From the UHGV virus genome UHGV-0075699: a stretch of 19,854 nucleotides of DNA; one strand, given 5' to 3'. The DNA is from a virus. A program made the translations under genes and the position numbers. The number at the start of each line of letters is the position of its first letter. The first letter of the stretch is position 1. The notes beneath the pieces are model-generated. The model had not been told where the DNA came from. It searched no databases and worked only from the letters and a program-made list of their open reading frames with translations. Of this stretch, positions 1 to 19,050 are shown piece by piece.

Positions 1-558
1 GTCCTCATCGAATGCCGCCAGTTCGTCATATCCGGCAACATCAACCGATTTCTCACGATAGTTCTTTGCAGCCTTACCGCCGAGACACCAGAAACCGCGA
101 CCGTTAGAGAATCGCTTCATGCTGAGCGTGTTATTGCGGTGCTTTTTCCCATACCACGGCGCCAGCGCCAGCAGTGCGGGAATATCACGGATCGTCGGCT
201 CAACATGCGACTTCATGAAGTTTTCGGCATCGCCGTCGGTCGGCAGCCAGATGAGGGAATTTCGCTGCTTATGCTCAATAAAATAGGAATAGACGCCCAG
301 CAGCATCTTCGAGTAACCGACACGGGCAGATTTCACAACGTTCACTTCCCGTATGTAGTCATTCCCCATCGCATTCATTATTGCGCGCTGGAAAGGCAGC
401 GTGACCCAGCGCCCTTCCTGGTAAGCTGATTCTTTCGGCAAATAATAATTATTGTCTGCCCACTCCACTGCCGTTTGCGGCTCCGGGCGATAGAGTGAGC
501 GCAGCCCGGCGCGCGCGGATGACTGCAGCCCCTTAATCTGACTGTTCGATATATTCAC
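1..558 (-). CDS. A: Terminase large subunit (lambda gpA-like), N-terminal portion; CDS continues past window start
   Basis: Minus-strand translation from GTG at 558 reads VNISNSQIKGLQSSARAGLRSLYRPEPQTAVEWADNNYYLPKESAYQEGRW...DVAGYDELAAFDED, collinear with the recalled N-terminus of lambda gpA; the frame runs open to base 1. The plus-strand ORF 139..429 is antisense to it. Confidence 0.9.
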   Translation of the reverse strand, partial: MNISNSQIKGLQSSARAGLRSLYRPEPQTAVEWADNNYYLPKESAYQEGRWVTLPFQRAIMNAMGNDYIREVNVVKSARVGYSKMLLGVYSYFIEHKQRNSLIWLPTDGDAENFMKSHVEPTIRDIPALLALAPWYGKKHRNNTLSMKRFSNGRGFWCLGGKAAKNYREKSVDVAGYDELAAFDED

Positions 559-1078
559 TCAGCAACCCCGGTATAATTTCATCCAGCGCAGCTGCCTTGT
601 TCATGGCTTTGATTACGTCCTTTTTAAGGAAATCAATGTGTCGATTCTCCAGCTCAGGAAACCGCCGCTGCACCGACAGGGGGATCCCGTCCAGGATACT
701 GGCTATTTCGCCGGCCACGCGTGAAAGCACGAACGTGCAGAATGCGGTCTCCACCACCTCAGCGGAACTTTTGGCGTTTTTTAGCTCCTGGGCATCAGCC
801 TGCGAGCGGGTCAGACGGTAGCGCTCATAATCAATTGTTCCTGGCTGCAGATCAGATTCACCAGCCTTACGGAGCTCTTCAACTTCCTTTCTCAACTTTT
901 CGTTTTCGATGTCAGCATCACGTTGGGCAAACCACTTAATCACGGCAGCGGAATCGTAAAGAACCTCATTACCTTTGCCACCACCACGCACAAACGGCAT
1001 CCCCTGATCCTGCCAGTTCTGAATCGTACGAATGCTGACACCAAAAATATCGGAGAGCAGTTTTTTGTTCACCTCCAT
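533..1078 (-). CDS. nu1: Terminase small subunit (lambda Nu1-like)
   Basis: ORF-track protein MEVNKKLLSDIFGVSIRTIQNWQDQGMPFVRGGGKGNEVLYDSAAVIKW... (181 aa from the ATG at 1078) matches recalled lambda Nu1 in sequence and length. AGGAG Shine-Dalgarno lies 5 nt upstream; the 3' end overlaps the gpA start as in lambda. Confidence 0.9.
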   Translation of the reverse strand: MEVNKKLLSDIFGVSIRTIQNWQDQGMPFVRGGGKGNEVLYDSAAVIKWFAQRDADIENEKLRKEVEELRKAGESDLQPGTIDYERYRLTRSQADAQELKNAKSSAEVVETAFCTFVLSRVAGEIASILDGIPLSVQRRFPELENRHIDFLKKDVIKAMNKAAALDEIIPGLLSEYIEQSD

Positions 1079-1099
1079 ACGCACTCCTTAGGCGAAAAC

Positions 1100-4364: not shown

Positions 4365-4772
4365 TTACCGGACAATTATTTCCATTTTTTGTCCTAGTAC
4401 CGATAGTGCTTTTTGAATGGTGTCGATCTTGGTGCTATGACCAAGAGACACGATTCGCTGTACCTCCTGAGGGCGCGTATTAATCATGCGGGCCAGTTCA
4501 GCGTTACTGGTATTGGTACTGACCAGGCGGTTTAGCAATAATACCTTCGCCGCCACGCTTGATGGCACTTCAACAAACGCCTCACCCTCTGCTGAAGGTG
4601 CGGGGATCTCCCGGCGGTCGTCAAAATAGAAATCAAACGCCGTAACCAGGGCATCCTGCGCCATTTCTAACGCTTCCTCCCTGGTTGCCCCTCCCGTCAT
4701 TGCCTCGGGGATATCTGGGAAAAATACCGCCCAGCCGGTTTCGTCATGCTCAAAATTTACCGGATATCTCAT
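4365..4772 (-). CDS. hicB: HicB antitoxin
   Basis: From the internal ATG at 4772 the protein reads MRYPVNFEHDETGWAVFFPDIPEAMTGGATREEALEMAQDALVTAFDFYFDD...LSVLGQKMEIIVR, matching the recalled E. coli HicB pattern (MRYPV...FVDIPEA...DAL.TAFDFYFED...). Directly downstream of hicA. Confidence 0.85.
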   Translation of the reverse strand: MRYPVNFEHDETGWAVFFPDIPEAMTGGATREEALEMAQDALVTAFDFYFDDRREIPAPSAEGEAFVEVPSSVAAKVLLLNRLVSTNTSNAELARMINTRPQEVQRIVSLGHSTKIDTIQKALSVLGQKMEIIVR

Positions 4773-4819
4773 ATTGATTAAGTGAATCTCCACGAGTACC
4801 AGCCCCGGAGGGCTGGTTT

Positions 4820-4996
4820 TTATTTGATACCGAGTTGCTTCAAAATTGCTTTTCTCAGCGGCTCCGGGATTTCCTTGCCCGGGTGTCTCGGCATTATCGT
4901 TTGCTTGCCGTTGAGGTAAATTTTTAAGTGGTTGGTACCATCTTTAAACTCTGCCCCTTGAGCTGCAAGCCAACGCCTGAACTCGCTTTGCTTCAC
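4820..4996 (-). CDS. hicA: HicA mRNA-interferase toxin
   Basis: 58-aa ORF (below the ORF-track size cutoff) found by manual translation: VKQSEFRRWLAAQGAEFKDGTNHLKIYLNGKQTIMPRHPGKEIPEPLRKAILKQLGIK, closely matching recalled E. coli HicA (MKQSEFRRWLESQG...NHLKL...MPRHP...EPLRKAILKQLGL). GTG start preceded by AGGAGGAGG. Confidence 0.85.
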   Translation of the reverse strand: MKQSEFRRWLAAQGAEFKDGTNHLKIYLNGKQTIMPRHPGKEIPEPLRKAILKQLGIK

Positions 4997-5110: not shown

Positions 5111-5134
5111 ACAAAAAACCCCGCCGAAGCGAGG
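5111..5134 (-). terminator. Late-operon terminator (tR'-like) downstream of the late promoter
   Basis: Minus-sense RNA CCUCGC-UUCG-GCGGGG (6-bp stem, UUCG tetraloop) followed by UUUUUUGUUGG; plus coordinates 5119-5134 stem, 5113-5118 A-run. Confidence 0.6.
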
Positions 5135-5171
5135 TTATTTATAAAAATGGCAAGATATCAAATTACCTCAA

Positions 5172-5225: not shown

Positions 5226-5945
5226 TTAATCACATTTTTCCGTTCTGACCTCTTCTATTTGCTCATGATATGTGTAGATGTTCTGCAATGCGTTGTTATC
5301 CATCTCAATGAAAGCCGTTTTAAGTCGTTCCCAATGCCCGGCATAAACCCTTTTCCAGGTTGAGCGGTCAACTGAAACCATACGCGCCAGAGCTGCGCCA
5401 GCGTAGGTTTTATACGTCTCATTATTCCGGGTCGCTGCAACCTCCTGGCCAGCCAGCCAGACCAGCCCCACAAGCTTTTTTATTACTCTCGATTGGATCG
5501 CCCTGCCTACTTGATAGTTCTGATATTCAGTCCAGACGTGTTCACACATCAGCGTCTGGTAACGGAAATTTAGATCGAAGCCATAGCAATAGCGCACCCA
5601 TGCCTGGTGATGTTCTTCCAGCAGGTTTACAGCGCGCCTCCACGGTGAATAACCGAATTCAATATCATTGATGGGCGGCATTGGCCGGCGGCGGCTGCGG
5701 GTCTCCATCACATAAACTGGAGTAGTCAGTGCCTTAACCACCGACGGGCCACAACCAATCCCCCCTTCCAGATCGACAAGATTGCGAGAGCACCGCGGAT
5801 TTTTATTCTTATCTGCCGGTGGGTTCTCGCTGAATGCCTCGAGTTGTCCCTTTGTTGCGCCGGATAAATCCAACAACGCTCGACGCACTTCAATACGGGT
5901 ATATTCCAGGTTTTGTAGGTTCATACTGCTCAACGCTCCATACAC
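5226..5945 (-). CDS. Probable late antiterminator Q (Qin/82-type Phage_antitermQ-like)
   Basis: 239-aa ORF located exactly where Q sits in lambdoid phages (after the nin-region genes, directly before a promoter-terminator pair and the lysis cassette). Assignment rests mainly on position and size; start could be GTG 5945 or ATG 5924. Confidence 0.5.
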   Translation of the reverse strand: MYGALSSMNLQNLEYTRIEVRRALLDLSGATKGQLEAFSENPPADKNKNPRCSRNLVDLEGGIGCGPSVVKALTTPVYVMETRSRRRPMPPINDIEFGYSPWRRAVNLLEEHHQAWVRYCYGFDLNFRYQTLMCEHVWTEYQNYQVGRAIQSRVIKKLVGLVWLAGQEVAATRNNETYKTYAGAALARMVSVDRSTWKRVYAGHWERLKTAFIEMDNNALQNIYTYHEQIEEVRTEKCD

Positions 5946-7006
5946 TATGCTTTTATAATTGCGCCGATCGCCATAGCTCGATCAAGAAAACGGAACAGCA
6001 GCTCCAACTGCGTGCCATTCTTCTCTTCAAAGGCGTTAACATCGGCATGTAGCTCGTCGTGGCACTCTCTGCACAGAGGAAACACGAAGAGATCGTGGGC
6101 TTTGGTTGCGGTACCGCCCATGCCATGGCCGATGACATGATGCGGATCGTCAGCTGGTCTGCGGCAGCATTCGCATGGTTGATGCTTAACCCAGTCGGTA
6201 TAAGTCTTGCTTACCCAGCGACGGCGCTTTGGCCTGAGCATGAAAGATTCCGGCGATTCCGGATCGGCAGTCAGCGCAAGCCCCTTCGGCTGGTCCTGGT
6301 GCGCCTGGACATTTTCGTTGCGCCTGCATTGCCTTGCTGTGCCTGCAGCTGGCAGTTTCTCCTGCAGAATGCTGGTGGCCGGTAAAGTAGGCCGGATATC
6401 GCTTTCTTTATACACCGACAGGAACGGCTCTTCAGGCAACCCTAGACCACGCTGCGCCATCGTCTCCGTAATGGCATCGGCTATACCTGACTGAACTGCC
6501 CACCAGCACAACTCTGCGATTGAAAGAGAGCGTTCTTTGTTATAACCGAGCCCGATCAGCACAGTATCTATTACCCAGTCGACTACATTACGAAGTGCCA
6601 GCGCCTCGATAGCTGGAGTCGACTGCTCCCGCAGTTTATTGTCACAATGCCAGCACACCAGCAACGCACCAGGCGGATGTCGCATCGTTACCATCTCGTT
6701 ATGGTGGTACTCGGAATGAGGGTACTGGCACCTCTTCAGCCGGAGAAACAGCCACCGTTCAAGCGCTGGCAATCCACCAGCAGCACGAATCACACGCTCA
6801 TCGGAAAAGAATACGTGCAGGCTGGAATCCTCCGCTAAAGGTTGTCGGGCATCAGGGACACGACCAGATGGCAAGCGGGCCATATTTTGTGGTTCAGCCT
6901 CGACTAAAACACGCCCGGCAGAAAACAGGTGCATCAGATCACGGCCGGGCTTAAATAGAACCACGCCGAGGCGTGGCACAATCTCAGGGGTGAGTAACGC
7001 TCTCAT
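5945..7006 (-). CDS. Cys/His-rich nin-region protein, DUF968-like with HNH-like metal-binding C-terminus
   Basis: C-terminal region HQPCECCRRPADDPHHVIGHGMGG...FPLCRECHDELH has paired CxxC and His clusters typical of HNH/zinc-binding nucleases; a second Cys cluster (LLVCWHCDNK) lies mid-protein. Start overlaps the MTase stop. Confidence 0.45.
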   Translation of the reverse strand: MRALLTPEIVPRLGVVLFKPGRDLMHLFSAGRVLVEAEPQNMARLPSGRVPDARQPLAEDSSLHVFFSDERVIRAAGGLPALERWLFLRLKRCQYPHSEYHHNEMVTMRHPPGALLVCWHCDNKLREQSTPAIEALALRNVVDWVIDTVLIGLGYNKERSLSIAELCWWAVQSGIADAITETMAQRGLGLPEEPFLSVYKESDIRPTLPATSILQEKLPAAGTARQCRRNENVQAHQDQPKGLALTADPESPESFMLRPKRRRWVSKTYTDWVKHQPCECCRRPADDPHHVIGHGMGGTATKAHDLFVFPLCRECHDELHADVNAFEEKNGTQLELLFRFLDRAMAIGAIIKA

Positions 7007-8853
7007 GCAACCTCACGCCGACCAGAAACACAAATTTCAGGAAGGTTTGCTCTTACAATCGCCTCAGCAAAGGGCGGCGGCACGGCGTTTCCGCACCTGG
7101 CGACTTGTTTCTCTTTCGAGTACCTCTTGCCGCGGTAGTCACGATCAATGATGTACCAGTCAGGGAATCCCTGAGCGCGGTAAAGTTCATGCGGCTGCAG
7201 CATGCGCATTCCGATATCAACAATGCGGTAAACAATACCCTTAATCGTCACCAGTTCGCTGACGCCAAAAGAATTCAGGAACTCTTTGACCTGATCCGCC
7301 CGGCGCTCGTCGTAATCATTAGCCGCCAGCAGCGCGCGAACCTCTCCAACATGCTGACCTCCAGCGGTGATTGTCGGCATTGGTTCACTGGTGCGCTGGC
7401 CATCGCGGCAGGTACCGCGCAGTTTAACCAGATGAGACGTAACCAGCGCATGGTGATCGACTGTGGTAACTGAGTGTGCAGGATCGTCCAGTCCGACGCC
7501 CGGGCCGGTATAGTTCCCGCCGTAGTGTTTCGCCAAAAACGCAGTTGTTACGGCAAATTTATTGCCACCAGCTACAACTGTTCCCAGCGGTTTACGCAGA
7601 TTTAGAACGCGCGGCGACTGCCCTACACGTTCGCCATACCCCATCTGAATAAGTGTGGCCGCGACAAGCTGTGACTTCCCCCCGCCGCCAGCGGTAATTG
7701 TTGCGCTGGGTTCATCCGCCCGGTGGCCGATGCTGGCGCCGAACTGACGCGCGATAACTGGCGCAACCAGGCAGGAGCGAGACTGTTTAAGGATGGTATG
7801 AGCGGGTTTATTCAATGGCCGCGGTTTCGCCTGGTACTCGCTACCCCCATTACCTGCCAGGAATGGAACCAACGTCGGTAACGCCAGCGCATAACCGTGG
7901 GTTTTGGTGATGGTTTGCAGGGGATCGGCCAGCGACTGTCCGCGGAAGCAATCATATTTACCGCGTGTTGTGGTGTGGTTGCATTTGACGATGAACGGAT
8001 TATCACTTTCGACGACAAACCGCTGGATGCCGCGCGCTATCCGTTTCAACGTGTTAATGGCCAGCGGCTTTTTACGGTCAAATATCGATGGTGCAGGAAT
8101 AGACCAGTCGATACACTCAGCAGCTGTCCGCCATGGTGCCAAATTTCCGGATTTAACTGCTGCGGATTTAGGGTCACCGTGAGTGACTCCCGGCCAGGCA
8201 ATGGGTTTATCGTCACAACGCATCAACATGAAGAATCGCTTGCGGATCGTCGGAGCACCATAATCACTGGCACGCAGTTCGCGATATTCGACCTTATACC
8301 CGAGGCCAGCAATCAGTCGTTTGGCTTGTTTGCCATCCGAGGATATGCCGAGAAATTCGCAACATTCGTACAGAGCCGGGTGATCCGCAGGTATACCAGT
8401 GGAAAGCATTCCAACAAATGCCAGGAAGGTTTCACCAGAACGCTTAGGATCAGGACGCATCTCACATGAAAGCAGCGGGCCCCACGTTTTAAATTCTTCA
8501 ACATTTTCGAGAGCCATTACACGAGGGCGAACATCCAATGCCCAGCGAACAGATACCCAAGCCAGGCCACGAATCTCACGTTTTACCGGTTTACTGCCGC
8601 GCGCCTTTGAATAGTGGGTACAATCCGGGCTGAACCATGCAAACCAGACAGCCTTTCCACCTGTCGCAGCGACAGGGTCAACGTCAAAGACGTTTTCACA
8701 ATAATGAAGCGTGTCCGGGTGATTCGTCCGGTGCATGGCCACGGCGTTTTCGTCGTGGTTAATGGCAATATCAACGCTGCGGCCGATCGCCATTTCTATC
8801 CCGGTAGATGCCCCACCACCGCCAGCAAAATTATCAACAATCAGCTCACGCAT
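7003..8853 (-). CDS. DNA (cytosine-5)-methyltransferase with large variable/target-recognition region
   Basis: Motif I DNFAGGGGAS (AdoMet binding), motif IV SPDCTHYS (catalytic Pro-Cys), motif VI ENV, C-terminal CGNAVPPP (motif X). About 400 aa lie between motif VI and the C-terminal motifs. Confidence 0.85.
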   Translation of the reverse strand: MRELIVDNFAGGGGASTGIEMAIGRSVDIAINHDENAVAMHRTNHPDTLHYCENVFDVDPVAATGGKAVWFAWFSPDCTHYSKARGSKPVKREIRGLAWVSVRWALDVRPRVMALENVEEFKTWGPLLSCEMRPDPKRSGETFLAFVGMLSTGIPADHPALYECCEFLGISSDGKQAKRLIAGLGYKVEYRELRASDYGAPTIRKRFFMLMRCDDKPIAWPGVTHGDPKSAAVKSGNLAPWRTAAECIDWSIPAPSIFDRKKPLAINTLKRIARGIQRFVVESDNPFIVKCNHTTTRGKYDCFRGQSLADPLQTITKTHGYALALPTLVPFLAGNGGSEYQAKPRPLNKPAHTILKQSRSCLVAPVIARQFGASIGHRADEPSATITAGGGGKSQLVAATLIQMGYGERVGQSPRVLNLRKPLGTVVAGGNKFAVTTAFLAKHYGGNYTGPGVGLDDPAHSVTTVDHHALVTSHLVKLRGTCRDGQRTSEPMPTITAGGQHVGEVRALLAANDYDERRADQVKEFLNSFGVSELVTIKGIVYRIVDIGMRMLQPHELYRAQGFPDWYIIDRDYRGKRYSKEKQVARCGNAVPPPFAEAIVRANLPEICVSGRREVA

Positions 8854-9742
8854 GGCTCACCCCCTGCATGCTTTCTACCAGTCCACCAGCAACAGTGATG
8901 ATCTCGCTGGTGGGCATACGCTCCAGCCACAGCTGGTTAATTTGCGCCATCAGCTTGTTTTGCTGGGACGGCTCCAGTCCTTCGGATCCTTCTACCTGTC
9001 GAAACACAAGCCCTACCTCCAGTGGCCAAATACGCGATTCCGTCTCTGGTAATTGCGTAGGCGTTGCGAGTGGTTCTACTGCCGCCGGCTGCGACATTAC
9101 CTGTGCTGGAGTATTGCCAACAGCAAACTGCGCCAGCATCATGAACGCTTGCCCTTTCCTTTCCAGATCCGCACGGTGGATATAGCCGAACCGCTCCCCG
9201 CGCCAGGCCTTATCAAACACGGCAATGGCGCCCGCAAAAAACGCGCTGGTGGGCTTTTGCTTATCATCAGCAGGGACAAACCACGCCGGGAGGTCGAATC
9301 CAATACGACCACGAATAAACATGATGTGATCGGCATCTTCTGGCCACCATGTTTCGCTCGGTGCTGCTTTGATGAGAAATACATAGCGCCCGCCCTTCTC
9401 ACGCTGCGCTGACGCGTAATTCATGATGTGCGTCATGCCAGTTATCGCCTGCTTTTCGTGGTACTGGGAGCGGCTATACGGTGGGTTGCCAAAGCCAGCG
9501 CCGCCAAGTTCTTCCAGACGAGCGGACCAATCTTGCGTCAGCGCGTTGTCTTCGGCGGTGAACCATACCGGGCATTTTGCGTTGCTATCGTCAGCAAACA
9601 GGTCCAGTACCAGCGGTCCAAACATTGCGTTAACGCCCCAGAACAGCAGATCAGGCGTGCGCCACTGATCACCAACGTCTTTCAGAAAATGGGACGGTGC
9701 AGCGCGCATGGCCGCCAGCGATTCACAATATGCATTCGTCAC
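8846..9742 (-). CDS. Phage-type DNA N6-adenine methyltransferase
   Basis: Contains GFGNPPYSRSQ (the NPPY motif of N6-adenine / N4-cytosine amino-MTases) with upstream AdoMet-binding-like segment. 8-nt overlap with the downstream C5-MTase gene. Confidence 0.8.
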   Translation of the reverse strand: MTNAYCESLAAMRAAPSHFLKDVGDQWRTPDLLFWGVNAMFGPLVLDLFADDSNAKCPVWFTAEDNALTQDWSARLEELGGAGFGNPPYSRSQYHEKQAITGMTHIMNYASAQREKGGRYVFLIKAAPSETWWPEDADHIMFIRGRIGFDLPAWFVPADDKQKPTSAFFAGAIAVFDKAWRGERFGYIHRADLERKGQAFMMLAQFAVGNTPAQVMSQPAAVEPLATPTQLPETESRIWPLEVGLVFRQVEGSEGLEPSQQNKLMAQINQLWLERMPTSEIITVAGGLVESMQGVSHA

Positions 9743-9996
9743 GCCAGCACCTCCTGCACTACTTTCTCGACATGAGACACTCGGCCTTCCAGATCTGCAA
9801 CACTATCAACCAGCTCATCAACTGCCAGCTGTGCGCGATGTTTGGCCTGCATCAGTTCACGCAACGCCGGTACCAGCGCTTTTTTAAGCGCGTCCTTTGT
9901 GGCCCCCGTCTTTTCCAGTTGTTCGGCACGTTTGAGCATGTCTTCAGCCTGGCGGCGCAGTTGTTCAGGGGTTAGTGATATAACCTGCGATTTCAT
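9739..9996 (-). CDS. Hypothetical small coiled-coil protein (85 aa)
   Basis: ORF whose ATG overlaps the stop of the replication gene (ATGA) and whose stop overlaps the MTase GTG start; predicted helical, charged. Confidence 0.5.
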   Translation of the reverse strand: MKSQVISLTPEQLRRQAEDMLKRAEQLEKTGATKDALKKALVPALRELMQAKHRAQLAVDELVDSVADLEGRVSHVEKVVQEVLA

Positions 9997-10874
9997 GAAC
10001 GGAATCCTTTTGGCACGGTGTAATTGACATCTGAATAGCTGGACTTGAATGCCTGGTCTTCACTTCCGGCTTTAGCCCATTTTCCATCAACACATTTCGG
10101 GCGACCGGCAGCGGCCCACTTGGTTGCAGACTGGAGATATCCAGGGAATTTTGACGGCAGAAAGAGCGTGGTTGGTCGCAGATATTCAGCCATTTTTAGA
10201 TCTTTTCCCCACTTCTCAGCGCTGTAATCGACCACCAGCGCCAGTTCGTCAGGTGTAAATCCTTCGCGCAGCCTCCCCCGGATATGTTCCAGGGAGGTTT
10301 TGCATACCTGAAAACGTGAACCGGTTGTGAGGTTCAGGTGTGAAAGGGCCTGCTTAGCAAGATCGGTAATAACCACTTCCGGGTCGGGTTCCGCAGGAAC
10401 CGGACAAAGGGGTTTAGATCCTACTGATGGATCTGGTTTTGAATTTACTGACGGATCGTGTCCAGTTTCTGGACCCTGAGAACCCTGTTTTTTTGGCTCT
10501 TTCGGACGTTCAGTTTCTGGACGTCCAGATTCCGAAGGTTCAGATTCTGAACGTCCAGATTTTGGACCCTCATAATGTTCATTTGCAGCCTGCCGCAGCT
10601 TAGCCACATTCAAGGTGTAGAGATTGCTGGTGCTGCGCTGACCGAGACGCCGTTCTTTTTTGGTCAGCCAGCCATCTTTAACCAGCTCGCCGATCAAAGT
10701 GATAACGGTACTGCGCCCGGCGCCGAGCTGGCGCGCAATCGTCGCAACGCTTGGGTATGCGATCCCCTCATCACTGGCGTAATCAGCCAGGCGAAGCATG
10801 ATCAGTAATTTATTGCCTTTGATGCCTGCCGCGGCGCAACCATCCCAGACATATGCGGATAATTTAACGCTCAC
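9993..10874 (-). CDS. Replication initiation protein (N-terminal HTH, repeat-containing linker, conserved phage C-terminal domain)
   Basis: N-terminus LLIMLRLADYASDEGIAYPSVATIARQLGAGRSTVITLIGELVKDGWL is a winged-HTH of the phage replisome-organiser type. The central low-complexity repeat linker is encoded by DNA iterons. The C-terminus (LAKQALSHLNLTTGSRFQ...GFTPDELALVVDYSAEKWGKD) resembles the phage conserved C-terminal domain family. Confidence 0.65.
   Translation of the reverse strand: MSVKLSAYVWDGCAAAGIKGNKLLIMLRLADYASDEGIAYPSVATIARQLGAGRSTVITLIGELVKDGWLTKKERRLGQRSTSNLYTLNVAKLRQAANEHYEGPKSGRSESEPSESGRPETERPKEPKKQGSQGPETGHDPSVNSKPDPSVGSKPLCPVPAEPDPEVVITDLAKQALSHLNLTTGSRFQVCKTSLEHIRGRLREGFTPDELALVVDYSAEKWGKDLKMAEYLRPTTLFLPSKFPGYLQSATKWAAAGRPKCVDGKWAKAGSEDQAFKSSYSDVNYTVPKGFRS
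10422..10567. repeat. Iteron array (candidate replication origin) inside the replication gene
   Basis: Four perfect tandem 15-bp units at 10508-10567 (GTTCAGTTTCTGGAC, GTCCAGATTCCGAAG, GTTCAGATTCTGAAC, GTCCAGATTTTGGAC), a fifth copy at 10460-10474 (GTCCAGTTTCTGGAC), and a second repeat pair TACTGATGGATC / TACTGACGGATC at 10422-10433 and 10446-10457. Each unit is internally palindromic. Confidence 0.6.
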
Positions 10875-11051: not shown

Positions 11052-11756
11052 TCAGCCTCCCATCAGTTCAGAGGCATAGCGCTGTGCAATCCACTGGACG
11101 CCGCGGGGGGTTACTCGCGTTTGGGTGTAGGCATGACCAAAATCTGAAGTACCCGTTTTGACGGTAAACAGACCTTCACGCTGGCGCAGGGCATGAGGGA
11201 GCAGATTGCCGGACTGGCGAAACAGCACCTTGTCACGCAGTAGCGTGTCAATCATGGCCTTTTCTGGCATGTTGAGGATCTTCGCCGTCTCACGCAGACT
11301 TTTGGCACCGCCGGACTCTACGTAGTGGTTTACAAACGCTACCTTAGGCGCATCCTGCTGAACCTTATGCGCCAGCTGCGCATTCTGTTCAGCCATATCG
11401 GCAGCGAGTCGCAAGGCTTCAGGTAACGTTTGAGGAATGGCCGATTTGTTCTCAAGCTCCTGCCAGCGATCCACAACCGCCGCGGTAAACTCAGGAGACA
11501 GACGGGCAACCAAAACCAATGAGTCGCGCTTATTGAAGCGGTACTCCTTATACACGTTTCCGTTATGCTCAAAATCGAACTGCGCCAACGGCGCGGTTAA
11601 AAGACCAGCAGCTTTCAGGCGCTCAGCGGAGCGTTTGACATCACCATGTTTACTCTGAACCAGAGCGGCGATTTCCCGACTGCTCATTGTCACTACGCCG
11701 CCGAACACAGGGGAAAATCCAACAGCCGGGGCACGATTAATTGATTGCTGAGTCAT
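11052..11756 (-). CDS. Rha-family phage regulatory protein / antirepressor (KilA-C-like C-terminus)
   Basis: N-terminal segment [27 protein letters not shown]...[23 protein letters not shown] follows the Rha pattern; the C-terminal segment ([27 protein letters not shown]...GLFTVK...[13 protein letters not shown]) resembles antirepressor C-terminal domains. Confidence 0.6.
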
Positions 11757-11934
11757 TCGGTTTCACTCCTCTGGATCTATAGTCACCCACAGCCCACTCG
11801 GTAAAACTGTGGTTCACCTCTTCCCAGCCACCGGGTACTCTTACGGCATAGCAATACGTGACCGCGCCTTTGCCACCACGAACCGGCAATGCGCGGAGTT
11901 GCGAACGCGGGATATTTGCGGTTAAATTGCTCAT
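11737..11934 (-). CDS. Hypothetical small protein (65 aa)
   Basis: ATG at 11934 overlaps the TGA stop of the upstream regulator (ATGA coupling). [40 protein letters not shown]...; no motif recognised. Confidence 0.4.
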
Positions 11935-12488
11935 GCGGATTTCTCCATACACATTGATTTATTCGCCACGACGCCCGGAGCTGCACACTCGCGGGCGTCA
12001 CTCTTTTCTGGCTGGCAGAAAATGCGATAAACAAGAATCGAATGCTCCTGAAGTTTTTGAATAGAGCTATACAGCTCTCCATCGATCGCCGCGCGTTCAT
12101 GCGGCTCAATCACACCATCTTCGATCGCTACCCGAATCTGTTGCGAATAGGCTGTAATCTGTTCGATAACCTCAAGCAGTCCCTGATTGATATCTGCGTT
12201 ATCCACTTCTTCAATATCCGCTAGCGGAACAAAGACCCCGCCGGACTGGCGCGCGACCGCATCGGTGATGTGACTTGCGCCACCAGCACGCTGCAGCACC
12301 ATCGCCCACTCAAGCGGGAAGATCTGATCACCAGCGACGCGCAGGCGGTTGAATAAGGCGTTTTCAGTTATACCCAGCCATTCAGCCGCCTCGGCATAAC
12401 CTCCAGGCAGTTCAGTAATCGTTTTCTTGATCGCGGCCACCAACCAGGCTGGTTGACGCTCTACTTTCCAAATTGGCTCATTACCCAC
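11931..12488 (-). CDS. CII-like phage regulatory protein (Phage_CP76 / 186-CII-like family)
   Basis: Segment [55 protein letters not shown]...[18 protein letters not shown] fits the remembered conservation pattern of this family; position directly after cro; GTG start with AGGGGGGG RBS. Confidence 0.55.
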
Positions 12489-12532: not shown

Positions 12533-12733
12533 TTATGTTTTGGAATAGATATCTGGCCTAAGCTGCGATCTGGTGATGGCACCGGAGGTGCTTTTCTCCA
12601 ACTTTTTTGCTAGGTCAAAACCAGCTTTCTTGTAGCCATTGAAAACCAAACGTAGGTAACCGGTAGTGGAGCCAACGTTTGTTGCTAATTTGCTCTGTTG
12701 TTCTTTGGTTAATGAATCCCAAAACTCTTTCAT
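12533..12733 (-). CDS. Cro-like repressor (YdaS-type HTH)
   Basis: 66-aa protein from the ATG at 12733 (MKEFWDSLTKEQQSKLATNVGSTTGYLRLVFNGYKKAGFDLAKKLEKSTSGAITRSQLRPDIY), strong AGGAGG SD 7 nt upstream; divergent from the CI repressor gene across an operator-rich intergenic region. Confidence 0.7.
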   Translation of the reverse strand: MKEFWDSLTKEQQSKLATNVGSTTGYLRLVFNGYKKAGFDLAKKLEKSTSGAITRSQLRPDIYSKT

Positions 12734-12820
12734 ATATGTACCTCCTGTGTACATATTACACGAAAGAAATGAACCTTCAAGGTACTTGTACCTTTACGGT
12801 ACACGCGGTTTAATTTCCCT
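12734..12820. promoter_or_regulatory. OR-like divergent promoter/operator region between cro and cI
   Basis: Palindromes ATATGTAC-N7-GTACATAT (12734-12756) and AAGGTAC-TT-GTACCTT (12779-12794). Candidate pR on minus (-35 TTGAAG 12775-12780, -10 TAATAT 12753-12758) and candidate pRM on plus (-35 TTGTAC 12786-12791, -10 TTTAAT 12809-12814) that would start at or next to the cI ATG (leaderless). Confidence 0.55.
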
Positions 12821-13495
12821 ATGAAAACAATCCAGGAAATCAGGCGTTTAAACGCCAGAAAGTTGAGAGATGGTGTTGGTGGAAATACTTTTTTTGCCAA
12901 TATGATTGATCGCGAGCCTACTCAAACAAGCCGGTTCATGGGGGACGGCGCGACAAAAAACATCGGCGATGCTATGGCAAGGCACATTGAAAAATGTTTC
13001 GACTTGCCAACTGGGTGGTTAGATCAAGAACACCAAACCACAAACGTGGCAAAGGCCCCTGATGTCTCCGATACAAATAGAAATATCACGATGGTTCCGG
13101 TTATATCCTGGGTACAGGCAGGAGCATGGACCGAAGTTGGTTATGCTGAGGTAGATTTGAATAGTACGGAAAACTATCCCTGTCCTGTCCCTTGTGGCCC
13201 GATGACATACATCCTTCGAGTAATTGGCGACTCCATGATCGATGAGTATCGCCCTGGTGATATGATTTTTGTTGACCCTGAGGTCCCCGCAGTCCATGGC
13301 GATGATGTTATCGCTTTGATGCACGACTCTGGAGAAACAACATTTAAGCGCCTGATTGAAGATGCCGGTAACCGTTATTTAAAAGCTCTTAATTCGAACT
13401 GGCCTGAACCCTATATAAAAATCAACGGTAATTGCTCAATCATTGGAACCGTGATTTTTTCAGGAAAACCAAGAAGATATAGAATAAAAAATTAA
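12821..13495 (+). CDS. CI-type prophage repressor (N-terminal HTH, C-terminal LexA-like S24 peptidase domain)
   Basis: C-terminal domain has the Ser-Lys dyad context (VIGDSM ... TFKRL) of S24 autocleaving repressors; N-terminal region is a small DNA-binding domain; divergent from cro; followed by a strong terminator. Confidence 0.85.
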   Translation: MKTIQEIRRLNARKLRDGVGGNTFFANMIDREPTQTSRFMGDGATKNIGDAMARHIEKCFDLPTGWLDQEHQTTNVAKAPDVSDTNRNITMVPVISWVQAGAWTEVGYAEVDLNSTENYPCPVPCGPMTYILRVIGDSMIDEYRPGDMIFVDPEVPAVHGDDVIALMHDSGETTFKRLIEDAGNRYLKALNSNWPEPYIKINGNCSIIGTVIFSGKPRRYRIKN

Positions 13496-14005: not shown

Positions 14006-14377
14006 ATGAGTAATGATCGTATGACAGTCGTACCCGATTTCCTGGGTGAGCTGGACGCCGGCGTGTTCATGAACAAGATTGCGGCGGCTCTTAATACCAC
14101 CGCGCTCGGCGTTCTGAACAACGGCAACAAAGGCAAGGTAGTCCTCACCTTTGATTTTGAGCGTATGGGCAACTCTGTTGAAGAGAAGCGCGTCAAGATT
14201 AAGCACAAGCTGAACTACAGCACACCAACTCCCCGTGGCAAAGCGTCGGAAGAGGACACCACCGAAACACCAATGTGGGTCAACAAAGGCGGAAAGCTCA
14301 CCATCCTGCAGGAAGATCAGGGGCAGCTGTTCGGGATCACCGGCACGGTGGATGGAAAGCTTAAAGCGGCTCAGTGA
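14006..14377 (+). CDS. Hypothetical early-left protein (123 aa), YfdP-like by size and position
   Basis: ORF with GAGGG RBS 7 nt upstream; first gene after the pL leader; followed by DUF2303-like and HD-domain genes in the order recalled for E. coli CPS-53 yfdP-yfdQ-yfdR. Confidence 0.5.
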   Translation: MSNDRMTVVPDFLGELDAGVFMNKIAAALNTTALGVLNNGNKGKVVLTFDFERMGNSVEEKRVKIKHKLNYSTPTPRGKASEEDTTETPMWVNKGGKLTILQEDQGQLFGITGTVDGKLKAAQ

Positions 14378-14433
14378 TCCGCACCAACAAATTCACTGAT
14401 ACCACTTCGCTCATCAGTTAATAAGGAATTTTT

Positions 14434-15261
14434 ATGTCTCAGTTAGACAGCGGTACTTTTCAGCAGGTTAAAGACCTGGTGCTTTCCGGTTATCACCTGA
14501 ACGATATCCACGGTCTGGCCTGTCCGACGACCATTCTCCCGGAGGGAACCGAGGTCGCGAGTCTTGAGCGTTTCTCCCTGGAACGCTTCCGCTTCCGTGG
14601 CGCTATGGACACTACCAGCATTGATGATTTCGTTCGCTATTCCGCTGGCTATGCCAAAGAAGATGAAAAAGCACGTTGCTTCATCGATGCCGATAACATG
14701 CTGGCGCGCTCTATCTTCAACATCGGTACGCTGGATAACCCAGGCCACGCTGATAACGTCGCGTCAATCAAACTGAAAAAAACCGCCCCATTCCGCGCGC
14801 TGCTGTCGATCAACGGCGATCACCTTAATCAGAAGCAAATCGCCGAATGGCTGGAAGACTGGAGTGATTACCTTATTGCGTTCGATGCCGACGGCAAAAC
14901 GATGAAAATCGCCCAGGCAGCACAGGCAGTTCGCCGCGTCACCATTCAGCAAACTAACGCCTCCGATCATGAGGATGGTGATTTCAGTGGCAAAAAATCG
15001 CTGATGCAGAGTATCGAAGCCAGCAGTAAAGACGTGATGCCGGTAGCGTTCGAGTTCAAATGTGTGCCGTATGAAGGACTCGGCGAACGTGCATTCAGCC
15101 TGCGCAACAGTCTGCTGAAAAGTTCTGACCCGGTATTCGTCCTGCGTATCGTCCAGCTGGAAGCCCAGGAAGAAGCTATCGCTAATGAGTTCCGCGATCT
15201 GCTGACTGGTAAGTTCGACGGCAAGCCAGTGGAAACCTTTATCGGCAACTTCAAAGCCTGA
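14434..15261 (+). CDS. DUF2303-like protein (YfdQ-like), 275 aa
   Basis: ORF with TAAGGAA RBS; size and gene order correspond to the recalled CPS-53 yfdQ; no catalytic motif recognised by eye. Confidence 0.5.
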   Translation: MSQLDSGTFQQVKDLVLSGYHLNDIHGLACPTTILPEGTEVASLERFSLERFRFRGAMDTTSIDDFVRYSAGYAKEDEKARCFIDADNMLARSIFNIGTLDNPGHADNVASIKLKKTAPFRALLSINGDHLNQKQIAEWLEDWSDYLIAFDADGKTMKIAQAAQAVRRVTIQQTNASDHEDGDFSGKKSLMQSIEASSKDVMPVAFEFKCVPYEGLGERAFSLRNSLLKSSDPVFVLRIVQLEAQEEAIANEFRDLLTGKFDGKPVETFIGNFKA

Positions 15262-15275
15262 TTGCTCTCCATTAA

Positions 15276-15300
15276 ATCCCCGGCGCCGCGGGGATTTATT
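15276..15300 (+). terminator. Possible intrinsic terminator or attenuator after the DUF2303 gene
   Basis: ATCCCCG-GCGCCG-CGGGGAT hairpin (7-bp stem) followed by TTATT; weak U-tract, so it may be a partial terminator. Confidence 0.35.
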
Positions 15301-15393
15301 AAAGCGTAATCCTGCAATTAATCGCCACCTAGCGAGGGATTTCTACACCCAAAATTCAGCGCTATGCAGAGCGCTATTAAACGGAGAAATACG

Positions 15394-15921
15394 ATGAGCT
15401 TTATTCAAACACTGTCTGGCAAGCACTTTAACTATAACGATATTCAAGAGGACGCTATCGTCATTGAGGACATTGCAACAGCCCTCTCGCACATCTGCCG
15501 CTTTGCCGGCCATCTGCCGGAATTCTACAGCGTCGGGCAACATAGCGTTCTGGTTAGCCACCTTGTGCCGCAGGAGTTCGCACTCGAGGCTTTACTGCAT
15601 GACGCGGCAGAGGCTTATATGCAAGACATCCCTGCACCACTCAAGCGATTGCTGCCCGACTATCAGGTGATAGAAGCACGTGTTGATGCGGCGATCCGCA
15701 AAAAGTTTGGTCTGCCGGCGGAGCAGCACCCTACCGTTAAATATGCCGACTTAGTCATGCTGGCCAGCGAACGCCGTGATTTCGAGATCGACGACGGCAC
15801 TCACTGGCCTATGCTCGACGGAATTATTCCCACCGACCAATTCGTTATCAATCCCGTTCGCCCAGGTCAGTCCTATGGGATGTTCATGAACCGATTCCAC
15901 CAGCTGATGGAGCGGCGCTAA
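15394..15921 (+). CDS. HD-domain phosphohydrolase (YfdR-like)
   Basis: From the ATG at 15394 (GGAG RBS): MSFIQTLSGKHFNYNDIQEDAIVIEDIATALSHICRFAGHLPEFYSVGQHSVLVSHLVPQEFALEALLHDAAEAYMQDIPAPLKRLLPDY... has the H...HD metal-binding signature (HSVL...LLHDAAEAY) and is collinear with the recalled E. coli YfdR sequence pattern. Confidence 0.7.
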   Translation: MSFIQTLSGKHFNYNDIQEDAIVIEDIATALSHICRFAGHLPEFYSVGQHSVLVSHLVPQEFALEALLHDAAEAYMQDIPAPLKRLLPDYQVIEARVDAAIRKKFGLPAEQHPTVKYADLVMLASERRDFEIDDGTHWPMLDGIIPTDQFVINPVRPGQSYGMFMNRFHQLMERR

Positions 15922-16118
15922 TGGCACACGTAAAAGTAAAAGACCTCGTTGCGGCAGCTCATGCCGCATCACAGGGTTTGCCACCAGCAGAGGCAAAACT
16001 GATGCGTGATATCGCTACCCGTCTGGATGTGACTTATGTCGCGCTGACTGAATCGATGGATATCAATACCGCGCTGTCCGCCGATATTGCCAAGCTGCGC
16101 GAGGTTAGCAATGACTGA
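15921..16118 (+). CDS. Hypothetical small protein (65 aa)
   Basis: ATG overlaps the stop of the HD-domain gene (TAATG); stop overlaps the next gene start. Confidence 0.45.
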   Translation: MAHVKVKDLVAAAHAASQGLPPAEAKLMRDIATRLDVTYVALTESMDINTALSADIAKLREVSND

Positions 16119-16656
16119 TATCGCCCGACTGTTAACCAGTATCAAGCGCCGAGCAGCCCACGTAAAAGAATTCGGTGACGATATTACGTTTGTAAAGCTC
16201 GAAGACCTCGACGCGCTGGTAGAGGCGCTGGAGAAGGCGCAGACCCAATCCTCGAAGTGGCTTGAGGCCTACCACAAAGCCGTATCGATTGGCGCCCGAT
16301 ATGAGGAGCGCATCGCCGAGCTGGAGTTTATCCGCACCAGCGCTGACAAGGTGCAACGTGAGTTTGCCGAAGAACTGGGATGTGCTGGCGACAACGAGTC
16401 GATTTTGCAGGCTATTGAAGACCTGAAGGTACAAAGCGAAACCGCGCTCGAACTGAAGCAGGCAGCATTAGCCGATAATGCCCACCTCAAGCTTGAGCTG
16501 GAGATTCTGGGGTCCCGCACCGTCACCGTGAAGCTGCCTGACTTACGGCAGATTGTATCTGGGGACAGATATGTCTGGTCTGATGGCGTTTATAACTACA
16601 GCCAGGACGTAAAGGTAGCGCTGGCCTCCGCTGGCATCAAGTGGGAGGCTGAGTGA
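16111..16656 (+). CDS. Ead/Ea22-like coiled-coil protein (hypothetical)
   Basis: Start placed at ATG 16111 (ATGACTGA overlap with upstream stop). Long predicted coiled coil (LEDLDALVEALEKAQ...IEDLKVQSETALELKQAALADNAHLKLELE) and conserved-looking C-terminus (TVTVKLPDLRQ...); resembles the Ead/Ea22 family commonly found in this region of lambdoid phages. Confidence 0.45.
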   Translation: MTDIARLLTSIKRRAAHVKEFGDDITFVKLEDLDALVEALEKAQTQSSKWLEAYHKAVSIGARYEERIAELEFIRTSADKVQREFAEELGCAGDNESILQAIEDLKVQSETALELKQAALADNAHLKLELEILGSRTVTVKLPDLRQIVSGDRYVWSDGVYNYSQDVKVALASAGIKWEAE

Positions 16657-16856
16657 TGGCAGATACAACCGCTGAGTGGAGCCTTTCCCTCGATACGCAA
16701 TGCCCGAATTGCAAACACGTTTTCGATTTACGCCCAGAACTGGTTGATTGTGCTTCACCTGTCGAGGCTTGCGAAACAAATACCGTTGCTACGCGCGACT
16801 ATGAGACAGCGTGCCAGGAGTGCGGTCATGAGTTCACTGTCGATTTCATCTACTGA
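16656..16856 (+). CDS. Small zinc-ribbon protein
   Basis: CPNC ... CQEC pairs (two CxxC motifs about 35 aa apart); GGGAGG RBS 8 nt upstream of the ATG; start overlaps the previous stop. Confidence 0.5.
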   Translation: MADTTAEWSLSLDTQCPNCKHVFDLRPELVDCASPVEACETNTVATRDYETACQECGHEFTVDFIY

Positions 16857-16868
16857 AGGAGCCAACCA

Positions 16869-17045
16869 ATGACCAAATCAACCATAACCAGAGAGCGCCT
16901 GGAAAAAATTAAATCATGGCGTGAAACCTATGGAGCTGGAAGCAACGTAATGCTGCCAGCGGAAGAGGCTGAAGAACTGGCGCGTATAGCGCTGGCCGCA
17001 ATGCTCGCAGCCGTTCCACCAGCGTCGACACAGGAGAATATTTAA
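16869..17045 (+). CDS. Hypothetical small protein (58 aa)
   Basis: Manually translated ORF (below ORF-track cutoff) MTKSTITRERLEKIKSWRETYGAGSNVMLPAEEAEELARIALAAMLAAVPPASTQENI with GGAG RBS; fills the gap between the zinc-ribbon and exonuclease genes. Confidence 0.4.
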   Translation: MTKSTITRERLEKIKSWRETYGAGSNVMLPAEEAEELARIALAAMLAAVPPASTQENI

Positions 17046-17046
17046 C

Positions 17047-17616
17047 GTGAACCATTTAATGATCGACCTCGAAACTATGGGCAATAAGCCTGCTGCGCCA
17101 ATTGTTGCGATCGGCGCTGTATTCTTCGACCCGAAAAACGGTGAGCTGGGAGCCGAGTTCTATGTGGCCGTCGACCTCGCTAGCGCTATGGGTCAGGGGG
17201 CAACTCCTGACGGTGACACAATTCTGTGGTGGCTGAAGCAATCAGCTGAGGCCAGGGCCGCGATTTGTACCGACGACACTCATCACATCGATGAAGCACT
17301 TTATGAACTGAGTGACTTCATCAGTCGCAACTCTGAAAACCCGCGTTATCTGAAGGTCTGGGGCAACGGCGCCAACTTCGATAATGTCATTCTGCGAACT
17401 GCGTATGAACGAGCGGGCCGTATATGCCCATGGCAGTTCTGGAATGATAGCGACGTGCGCACCATGGTGCTGCTTGGTCGCCAGTTGGATTTCGATCCGA
17501 AGCGCGATATGCCGTTCGATGGTGTAGCCCACAATGCGCTGGCTGATGCTCGCCACCAGGTGAAATACGTGTCAGCAATTTGGCAGCGCCTGCTGCATAC
17601 CAGCACCGAAGAATAA
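17047..17616 (+). CDS. DnaQ-like 3'-5' exonuclease (DEDDh family)
   Basis: MIDLETMG (Exo I Asp/Glu), VWGNGANFD (Exo II Asp) and GVAHNALADARH (Exo III His and Asp, DEDDh type) in the expected order and spacing. Confidence 0.75.
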   Translation: MNHLMIDLETMGNKPAAPIVAIGAVFFDPKNGELGAEFYVAVDLASAMGQGATPDGDTILWWLKQSAEARAAICTDDTHHIDEALYELSDFISRNSENPRYLKVWGNGANFDNVILRTAYERAGRICPWQFWNDSDVRTMVLLGRQLDFDPKRDMPFDGVAHNALADARHQVKYVSAIWQRLLHTSTEE

Positions 17617-17659: not shown

Positions 17660-17869
17660 ATGGCAAAACTAATGAAGGCGAGTCAATGGGGCAAACGCGA
17701 ATTTGCCAAAGACTCTATTCCGGATAACCGAACCATTAAACGTTGGGTTGAAAATGGGCTACTCACAGGGAAGATCGTCGACGGTTCTGTTTTCGTCTTC
17801 GAGTCTGAAAAATGGGGAGTCGACTCAATGGTTAATCATACGGTTCGACAGCTAATAAATGAAGGTTGA
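17660..17869 (+). CDS. xis: Excisionase (Xis-like DNA-binding protein)
   Basis: 69-aa protein immediately upstream of and overlapping int; segment NRTIKRWVENGLLTGKIVDGSVFVFES resembles lambda Xis (ETVRRWVRECRIFPPPVKDGREYLFHES). Confidence 0.65.
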   Translation: MAKLMKASQWGKREFAKDSIPDNRTIKRWVENGLLTGKIVDGSVFVFESEKWGVDSMVNHTVRQLINEG

Positions 17870-17871
17870 CC

Positions 17872-19050
17872 ATGGCAGCCAGACCAAGAAAAAGAGAATA
17901 TCGCCACCTTCCAGAATATCTTTTATTTGATAAAGATCGCGGTGTTTATAAATTTACTCTTATAACAGGAAAGAAAAAGAACCTTGGTAAAGATCGAGCT
18001 ATGGCGATTGCTGTAGCTCGCGAATACAACCTAAGAATGAGACCATTAAACGTACCATCTGTTGATGTATTAATTAGGGAATCAGGTGGTATCGCTGGTG
18101 AGGCCAAACCATTTGCTGAATATGTAGACCATATTATGAACCGAGCAATTGAGAATGAGCGGCCATCACAAAATACCCTCGACGATTGGAATAATGATGC
18201 CATTCGTGTGAAAGAATTTTTTATCAATATTCCCGCTTGCGATATTGAACTGGAGCATGTAAACGCCTACATAAACCATTATCATGCTGAAGCTTCAGCA
18301 AACGTACAGAATAGGAAAGTCAGCTTCCTTAAAAAACTTTTCTCCTATGCGGTCGATGAATCATTAATGTTTGATAACCCGGCCACACGTAAAAAGATGC
18401 GCAGGACTGAGGAGAAGAAACGGCAGCGCCTGTCACTCGAACACTTTAAAGCCATCAGACGCGCCGCCGAGCCATGGCTACGGACTGCGATGGATTTAGC
18501 ATTGCAGACGACGCATGCGCGCCTTGAGGTGTCACGAATCCGATATTCAATCAGTGAGCCAAAAGATGGCGTCTGCGGGTGTGTATGGCTTGCACAGCCG
18601 GAAAACGGGATTTATGGCACGCTGTACATTCACCGCCAGAAAGTACAGAAGAAAGAGGCCTCGCATGTCGCAATCCCGATCGGGGAAGAGTTGAAGCGGA
18701 TTATTGACGAAAGCCGCGATAATGTAGCCAGCCCGTTTATCGTTCACCGGATTCCAGATAGGCAGGTTAAGCGTAGTAAAGAAGTTTCACACCCAACACA
18801 GGTTGCGCCGGACTATCTGAGCCGGTCCTTTTCAGCGGTGCGCGACAAACTTGGCTTATGCGACAAACTGGCGATGGACGAAAGACCAACCTTTCACGAA
18901 ATTCGAGCGCTGGCCGCCCATCTTTTTGATCAGCAAGGTATCGATCCGCAAGGACGAATGGCGCACAGTGATGCGAAGTCGACCAAGATTTACACGCAAA
19001 ACCATATCGATTGGGTTGTCGTTCCACATGGTGAAATTAAAGCCGGATAA
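17872..19050 (+). CDS. int: Tyrosine integrase (lambda Int family)
   Basis: C-terminal catalytic region contains PTFHEIRALAAHLF (H-x-x-R box, compare lambda PTFHELRSLSARLY) and the tyrosine-containing STKIYTQNH; arm-binding-type basic N-terminus. Start placed at ATG 17872 (GAAGG RBS); ORF track begins at TTG 17866. Lies next to the tRNA-derived att core. Confidence 0.9.
   Translation: MAARPRKREYRHLPEYLLFDKDRGVYKFTLITGKKKNLGKDRAMAIAVAREYNLRMRPLNVPSVDVLIRESGGIAGEAKPFAEYVDHIMNRAIENERPSQNTLDDWNNDAIRVKEFFINIPACDIELEHVNAYINHYHAEASANVQNRKVSFLKKLFSYAVDESLMFDNPATRKKMRRTEEKKRQRLSLEHFKAIRRAAEPWLRTAMDLALQTTHARLEVSRIRYSISEPKDGVCGCVWLAQPENGIYGTLYIHRQKVQKKEASHVAIPIGEELKRIIDESRDNVASPFIVHRIPDRQVKRSKEVSHPTQVAPDYLSRSFSAVRDKLGLCDKLAMDERPTFHEIRALAAHLFDQQGIDPQGRMAHSDAKSTKIYTQNHIDWVVVPHGEIKAG

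Follow-up and report, generated by a model that had tools for sequence, protein, structure and literature searches.

The window, that is, the whole stretch of 19,854 nucleotides analyzed here (UHGV virus genome UHGV-0075699), is a lambdoid prophage in which the gene next to the antiterminator gene Q codes for a 353-aa protein of the YdfU/DUF968 family. The protein is an ordinary member of that family and belongs to the HNH superfamily. To judge from its residues, its C-terminal module is a complete zinc-type HNH site and is predicted to be active. A second Cys/His cluster, in mid-protein, is predicted from alignment and modeling to be a structural zinc site within a pseudo-HNH module. As to function, we lean somewhat toward a zinc-dependent HNH endonuclease or nickase of recombination or replication intermediates, an alternative to NinB plus NinG that is possibly assisted by RecA.

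Family membership and position in the prophage

Pfam DUF968 (PF06147) was matched with 231.7 bits (E 6.8e-69; the gathering threshold is 27.8 bits) by residues 161-348 (5963..6526), which align to profile positions 2-171 of 171. PHROG 96 ('HNH endonuclease') was matched along nearly its whole length (E 2.2e-146, residues 1-350 against positions 1-333 of 334). The match to HNHc_6 (PF16784) was confined to the HNH core and, at 22.1 bits (E 1.2e-4), lay under the 26.6-bit gathering threshold, so the protein is a relative of the HNHc_6 group and not a member. An earlier sequence-only reading had named DUF968, HNH and NinG as the profiles to be searched: DUF968 was clearly positive, and NinG (PF05766) gave no match at E <= 0.1 with this protein or with any of 22 family members. 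No NCBIfam model matched the 353-aa protein. A PDB sequence search with the protein and with the family profile returned YbcO alone (E 0.22-0.99) and no solved close relative.

The family is large and already classified, and the novelty of this routine member is low. Matches to the protein numbered 185 among phage records (tblastn), among them YdfU of Stx2 phages, SfV orf45 and mEp460 gp49 at 55% identity over residues 1-350, and Citrobacter phiNP and the Escherichia phages LLS and Eeyore at about 70%. A large protein database gave 1625 matches, one of them 100% identical; the closest named relatives are 'DUF968 domain-containing proteins' of Klebsiella, Citrobacter and Mixta (70-81% identity). 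An exhaustive search of 50%-identity representatives gave 1252, of which 78 had E < 1e-30. DUF968, together with DUF1364/YbcO, forms group 7 of the His-Me finger nucleases, where YdfU is mentioned by name (Jablonska et al. 2017, PMC5714182). The same survey listed RusA, Q and antirepressor genes as DUF968 neighbors and hypothesized a NinG-like role in recombination (PMC5714182). DUF968 proteins of Gram-positive bacteria combine an Orf-like domain with HNH (Curtis et al. 2014, PMC4118853). Our literature search found no experiment on the function of YdfU or of the enterobacterial family. Fusions of the N-terminal domain were considered as a functional clue and set aside: the partners are tail-fiber, portal and capsid fragments, and these chimeras of decayed prophages are uninformative.

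The gene is tightly packed between its neighbors (Table 1). The last base of its TAG stop is the first base of the earliest possible Q start, GTG at 5945, and its start codon shares bases with the stop codon of the C5 methyltransferase gene upstream (ATGA, 7003-7006), which suggests translational coupling of these two genes. The sequence-only reading had put the protein directly upstream of Q, and the profile matches of the downstream ORF bear this out. On the minus strand the early-right operon runs cro, CII, rha, replication gene, N6-methyltransferase, C5-methyltransferase, DUF968, Q, and the DUF968 gene is thus the final delayed-early gene of the rightward operon. About 5 kb, including one lysis cassette, separates it from the packaging genes. 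Homologs of RusA, NinG, NinB and YbcN were not found within the window, nor was a recombinase seen across the 19.8 kb from int to terS. With recombinase, RusA and NinB/NinG all missing, reliance of the phage on host RecA is plausible. A nucleotide search of phage records gave one partial match, to a Klebsiella phage, at 83%.

Table 1. Features of the DUF968 protein and of its surroundings in the window (residue numbers refer to the 353-aa protein)
Feature	Position	Strand	Remarks
terS-like gene	533-1084		past the lysis genes
HicA/HicB, P21-type holin, lysozyme and DUF2514 spanin-like protein genes			beyond Q and the hairpin
Terminator-like hairpin	5136-5117		beyond the Q gene
Q antiterminator gene	5226..5945	-	PF06323, E 3.9e-35; phrog_304, E 6.3e-70
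DUF968/YdfU-family HNH protein CDS	5945..7006	-	complete, ATG start, 353 aa; ORF list, PHROG 96
Predicted HNH (His-Me finger) nuclease core, residues 270-345	5972..6199	-	
Basic motif RPKRRRW, residues 258-264	6215..6235	-	just ahead of the HNH core
Variable, gap-rich linker, residues 191-250	6257..6436	-	predicted disordered; pLDDT 35-67
Helical domain with predicted beta-beta-alpha zinc module, residues 56-190	6437..6841	-	
Predicted zinc site 1 (C93, H101, C118, C121), includes CWHCDNK	6644..6730	-	alignment of 22 homologs
N-terminal segment, residues 1-55	6842..7006	-	sequence-conserved; pLDDT 43-63
C5 cytosine methyltransferase gene, 616 aa	7003..8853	-	PF00145; PADLOC MTase_II
Dam-like N6 methyltransferase gene	8846-9742	-	
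HTH_36/Phg_2220_C replication protein gene	9993-10874	-	
Rha/ANT antirepressor gene	11052-11756	-	
CII/CP76 gene	11931-12488	-	
cro-like gene	12533-12754	-	
CI-like repressor gene	12821-13495	+	left arm
Integrase gene	17866-19050	+	left arm
Rv2179c-like exonuclease and DUF2303 protein genes		+	left arm

Two Cys/His clusters

The sequence-only reading had noticed two clusters of possible metal ligands in the ORF at 5945-7006, and both are present. CWHCDNK comprises residues 118-124; a check by hand placed the C118 codon at 6653-6655 and the C121 codon at 6644-6646. The C-terminal cluster consists of CECC (278-281), HH (289-290) and CRECH (312-316), followed by H320. Conservation was scored over 22 diverse full-length representatives (down to 25% identity, mean column identity 38%). 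Retention of the Cys/His residues in homologs, on which the earlier reading had made its case depend, was seen in 19-22 of the 22, at 25-55% identity. The family match and the conserved Cys/His positions are therefore not due to chance.

The structure was modeled with AlphaFold2 from a 38-sequence alignment. Confidence in the model of the whole protein is moderate (mean pLDDT 70, pTM 0.47) and differs by region: residues 56-190 reach about 90 and the HNH core 80-89, but definition is poor at the N-terminus (1-55) and in the linker (190-250). When residues 1-195 were modeled by themselves, the pLDDT was 80.5 and the secondary structure did not change.

The C-terminal core has C278, C281, C312 and C315 as zinc ligands, H290, H316 and H320 at the catalytic center, and an invariant aspartate, D305. 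C278 and D305 are present in all 22 homologs and C312 in 20; C281, H290, H316 and H320 are each kept in 19, as is Cys or His at position 315. The modeled core has the beta-beta-alpha-metal fold of the His-Me finger superfamily, and both the catalytic His and the metal-binding His of the helix are in place and conserved across homologs. Together with the DUF968 match and the conserved ligands, this upholds the HNH-like C-terminus that the sequence-only reading had proposed. In three divergent members (P0187, P0193 and P0255) all catalytic His residues are lost together and cluster 1 is kept. The basic motif ahead of the core is also well conserved (P259 in 21/22, K260 in 22/22) and may bind DNA, as the basic N-terminal part of Ref does (PMC4330346).

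Around the other cluster the model has a beta hairpin (strands 105-110 and 113-118) and a helix (119-125), packed against helices. Residues 56-190 would, on this model, form a degenerate HNH-like module of treble-clef-like appearance. C93 and C118 are present in all 22 homologs and D122 in 20. Position 101 is Cys in 12 and His in 9 of the 22, and position 121 is His in 17 and Cys in 5; such interchange of Cys and His at two of the four positions is the pattern of a structural zinc site. A second active HNH site was considered here and rejected, because residue 110, which closes strand 1 and is where a catalytic His would be expected, varies among the homologs and because the Cys/His swaps are like those of zinc ligands. 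Neither PDB nor BFVD contains a significant match to the N-terminal fold, and the N-terminal half has no structural match to NinB/Orf. Within residues 1-55, G14, P20, G21, F28, G31-L34, P39, G48 and Q55 are invariant among close homologs in the alignment, and this segment might serve in binding a partner.

DUF968 genes at other loci and alternative functions

The genomic company of DUF968 was studied in 80 loci from genomes of Enterobacterales species, scanned by tblastn with reference proteins. Downstream sequence of 1 kb or more was available at 78 loci. At 77 of them a Q gene follows immediately, at a distance of about 4-100 bp, and five Q families are represented. Three Q types account for 58 of the 78: that of phage 82 (28), that of lambda (16) and PF06323, the type found in the window (14); at one of these 58 loci (L041), RusA is inserted between DUF968 and Q. 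At 19 of the other 20 loci the downstream ORF is Q-like (DUF1133 plus PF06530, or phrog_753 'anti-termination protein Q-like'). NinG, NinH, NinB, YbcN and YbcO were detected by tblastn at none of the 80 loci. Upstream sequence of 5 kb or more was available at 71 loci; RusA occurs at 34 of these, the N6 methyltransferase likewise at 34, and the C5 methyltransferase at 21. For the reciprocal set, IMG/VR supplied 54 usable NinG loci; because their NinG is in every case 98% or more identical to that of lambda, they do not count as independent samples. They have NinB in 53 and NinH in 38 cases, and DUF968 and RusA in none. The two sets are indicative of mutual exclusivity between DUF968 and NinB/NinG in the sampled loci. 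NinG thus is accompanied by NinB and NinH and never by RusA in the sample, whereas DUF968 often occurs with RusA. The co-occurrence in 34/71 loci, as also in SfV and mEp460, rules out DUF968 as a RusA substitute, and the DUF968 protein is therefore not simply 'the' junction resolvase of these phages.

These distributions bear on what the protein does. The apparent translational coupling to methyltransferase genes would fit a restriction-like or host-directed nuclease that spares methylated self DNA and cuts unmodified DNA of the host or a competitor, or else a McrA-like enzyme that depends on modified DNA. However, the methyltransferases are optional, so the nuclease occurs without them in about half of the prophages; methyltransferases of these types are common beside NinG too (29/54 loci), and the matches to McrA are weak and limited to the generic HNH core. 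The protein matches no PADLOC defense family, for which reason a part in a defense system was rejected, and the methyltransferase-linked reading as a whole appears rather improbable. We consider it still harder to credit that the gene is a selfish, free-standing HNH homing endonuclease spreading by cutting phage genomes that lack it. Free-standing phage HNH genes are often mobile, and the mosaic junction next to five Q families is as expected of a moving cassette. The protein, however, has no homing-type DNA-binding modules, its Pfam matches being DUF968 and HNHc_6 only. The same slot is occupied in 77/78 loci despite differing flanks, with no common target site evident, and a family of 1625 matches is conserved over its full length. 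The exclusion of NinB/NinG, moreover, suggests functional replacement and not parasitism.

The adjacency to Q could instead point to a mainly non-catalytic DNA-binding or regulatory protein with a vestigial HNH, acting, for example, with Q or in late transcription. Some database records do call homologs 'antitermination protein Q' or 'transcriptional regulator' (PMC5714182), and the three members without catalytic His retain the N-terminal zinc module. But the 'Q' labels seem to have been carried over in annotation, 19/22 diverse members, the window's protein included, retain the catalytic residues, and a specific protein partnership is unlikely since the neighboring Q proteins belong to five families. 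We therefore regard a regulatory role as very doubtful. The sequence-only reading had offered a NinG/Rap-like recombination nuclease and a packaging-associated nuclease side by side. The recombination reading is the one favored here. A packaging HNH assisting terminase at cos/pac, like HK97 gp74, would represent a role common among siphophage HNH proteins (reviewed in PMC12817073), but the gene is in the wrong operon for packaging and SfV has a separate packaging-side HNH, which makes this the explanation with hardly any claim on our belief. The appropriate annotation in the window is a YdfU-family HNH endonuclease, not a packaging nuclease.

Related nucleases and a proposed mechanism

Compared with YdfU of the E. 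coli Qin prophage and its counterparts in Stx2 phages, SfV and mEp460, the window's protein is alignable over the full length and shares the length, both Cys/His clusters and the slot directly upstream of Q. There is no substantive difference, and it is a divergent ortholog. The most informative relative beyond the family is Gp16 of the Staphylococcus (S. aureus) phage PhiNM1, which binds dsDNA and nicks plasmids (Xu et al. 2026, PMC12817073). Gp16 interacts with RecA, which stimulates it, and normal phage DNA replication and yield depend on it (PMC12817073). It is an HNHc_6 protein (E 4.9e-117) that also scores above threshold for DUF968 (29.1 bits vs 27.8). It aligns to residues 278-329 with 38% identity over 52 aa (E 8e-8), and the alignment equates C145/C148 with C278/C281, H157 with H290, C181/H184 with C312/C315, H185 with H316, and H189 with H320. 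Both genes are early and lie in the replication/recombination region. The proteins differ in size (223 aa in Gp16) and at the N-terminus: Gp16 has a NinB/Orf-like domain there, unlike the window's protein, whose N-terminal half has the zinc beta-beta-alpha and helical module and no detectable NinB similarity.

The resemblance to P1 Ref (PDB 3PLW) is in the fold only. RecA_dep_nuc (PF16786) scored 13.4 bits (E 0.085) with the window's protein, below the 26.9 threshold, and BLASTP to Ref was not significant. Ref is a RecA-filament-dependent nickase anchored to DNA by a basic disordered N-terminus (PMC4330346). The RPKRRRW motif, directly ahead of the HNH core, has the corresponding location in the window's protein. 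The two differ in genomic context, and the region that is disordered and basic in Ref corresponds to a folded zinc module in the window's protein. NinG/Rap, a branched-DNA endonuclease, has the corresponding position in lambda, at the end of the nin region nearest Q; it too is a His-Me finger nuclease and has additional elements that bind zinc (PMC5714182). YbcO (DLP12/phage 82; DUF1364, PDB 3G27) is a 96-aa single domain without the N-terminal 260 residues.

The endonuclease or nickase that we favor would work as follows. From the last position of the delayed-early operon, the protein would be produced during replication and recombination of the phage DNA. The CCCC zinc site would hold the beta-beta-alpha fold of the C-terminal module, H290 would probably act as the general base, and the catalytic metal would be held by H316 and H320, with D305 or D287 as a probable further ligand. 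Residues 56-190, having lost the catalytic His, may have become a DNA- or partner-binding specificity module, joined to the nuclease through the flexible linker and the basic RPKRRRW. Nicking or cleavage of branched, D-loop or replication-intermediate DNA would then promote phage recombination and replication, so that the protein, a counterpart by position, would probably also be a functional stand-in for the lambda NinB(Orf) and NinG(Rap) pair. Host RecA may recruit or stimulate it, as with PhiNM1 Gp16 and P1 Ref. The substrate, the dependence on RecA and the role of the N-terminal module are the parts of this scheme that we infer.

A bolder version, in which we would place little confidence, makes the YdfU family a tandem 'pseudo-HNH + HNH' class whose dead module, together with residues 1-55, licenses the C-terminal nickase. 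Within that version, the N-terminal part would recognize either a structure in the DNA or a protein of the host, RecA or SSB for instance. If the class were real, one polypeptide would do the work of the NinB/Orf mediator as well as that of the NinG/Rap nuclease, and because of the invariant slot last before Q its expression would coincide with the changeover between early and late replication.

What the present analysis adds for this family is the putative structural zinc in the pseudo-HNH module, the nearly invariable position last before Q whatever the Q family, and the exclusion of NinB/NinG in the sample. The Gp16 result (2026), coming from a Gram-positive relative, makes the YdfU family directly testable. 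Should YdfU act like Gp16, it would represent a third nin-region solution beside NinB+NinG and YbcO+RusA, and it could affect how prophages are induced and how Stx phages replicate. A large proportion of the lambdoid prophages of Enterobacterales, Qin of E. coli K-12 among them, have a DUF968/YdfU gene, and many Shiga-toxin phages carry one just upstream of Q and the stx region.

The boundary between the DUF968 and Q genes

At the DUF968 loci collected from Enterobacterales genomes (L007-L086), the gene that follows DUF968 is a Q antiterminator gene, which is drawn from five different families: PF06530, PF03589-like, PF06323, DUF1133 together with PF06530, and phrog_753. This makes the DUF968/Q boundary a sharply conserved mosaic junction. 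The ortholog in Citrobacter phage phiNP is itself labelled 'antitermination protein Q (ater Q_2)' in its record. This label looks like an annotation error, transferred from the adjoining true Q gene.

Features of the window and the phiNP ortholog
Feature	Coordinates	Strand	Remarks
DUF968 ortholog in Citrobacter phage phiNP (phiNP coordinates)	8001-9068		71% identical
Two tandem methyltransferase genes	7003-9742	-	apparently translationally coupled into the DUF968 gene
Strong terminator-like hairpin	5117-5136	-	8-bp stem in which 5 pairs are GC; TTCG loop and T-run
HicA toxin gene	4820-4996	-	PF07927, 1.6e-9
HicB-like antitoxin gene	4365-4793	-	PF15919, 2.3e-8

Genes and signals around the junction

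Upstream of DUF968, the first of the methyltransferase pair is a Dam-like N6A enzyme of 298 aa. The C5 enzyme is unusually long (616 aa), and its PF00145 match is broken into three stretches. No restriction partner is visible for the two methyltransferases. The same methyltransferase arrangement is found in phiNP. Farther off, the early-left region (14006-17616, plus strand) codes for a DUF2303 protein and an Rv2179c-like 3'-5' exonuclease; among its ORFs other than those at 14006-14377, 15364-15921 and 16087-16656, no Red, RecT or Erf recombinase is recognisable.

On the other side of the junction, the hairpin lies about 90 bp past the Q stop codon and is a candidate for tR', on which Q would act. 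A simple scan for PR' gave no promoter-like match. The HicA and HicB-like genes (together 4365-4996) are placed after Q and before the holin gene, where morons classically lie, on the downstream side of the late promoter.

Divergent and chimeric family members

In three divergent members of alignment A2, which comprises 22 diverse full-length proteins of the family, H289/H290, H316 and H320 are all lost together (P0187, P0193 and P0255). The N-terminal zinc site (C93, C/H101, C118, H/C121) is retained in all three. Loss of the catalytic histidines but not of the zinc site suggests that the N-terminal module has a function independent of catalysis. In six other database 'proteins' (P0122, P0128, P0150, P0161, P0166 and P0194), the YdfU N-terminal part is fused in frame to fragments of tail-fibre, tail-tip J, portal or capsid proteins. 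These fusions are most likely deletion scars of decaying prophages or assembly chimeras, rather than real domain architectures.
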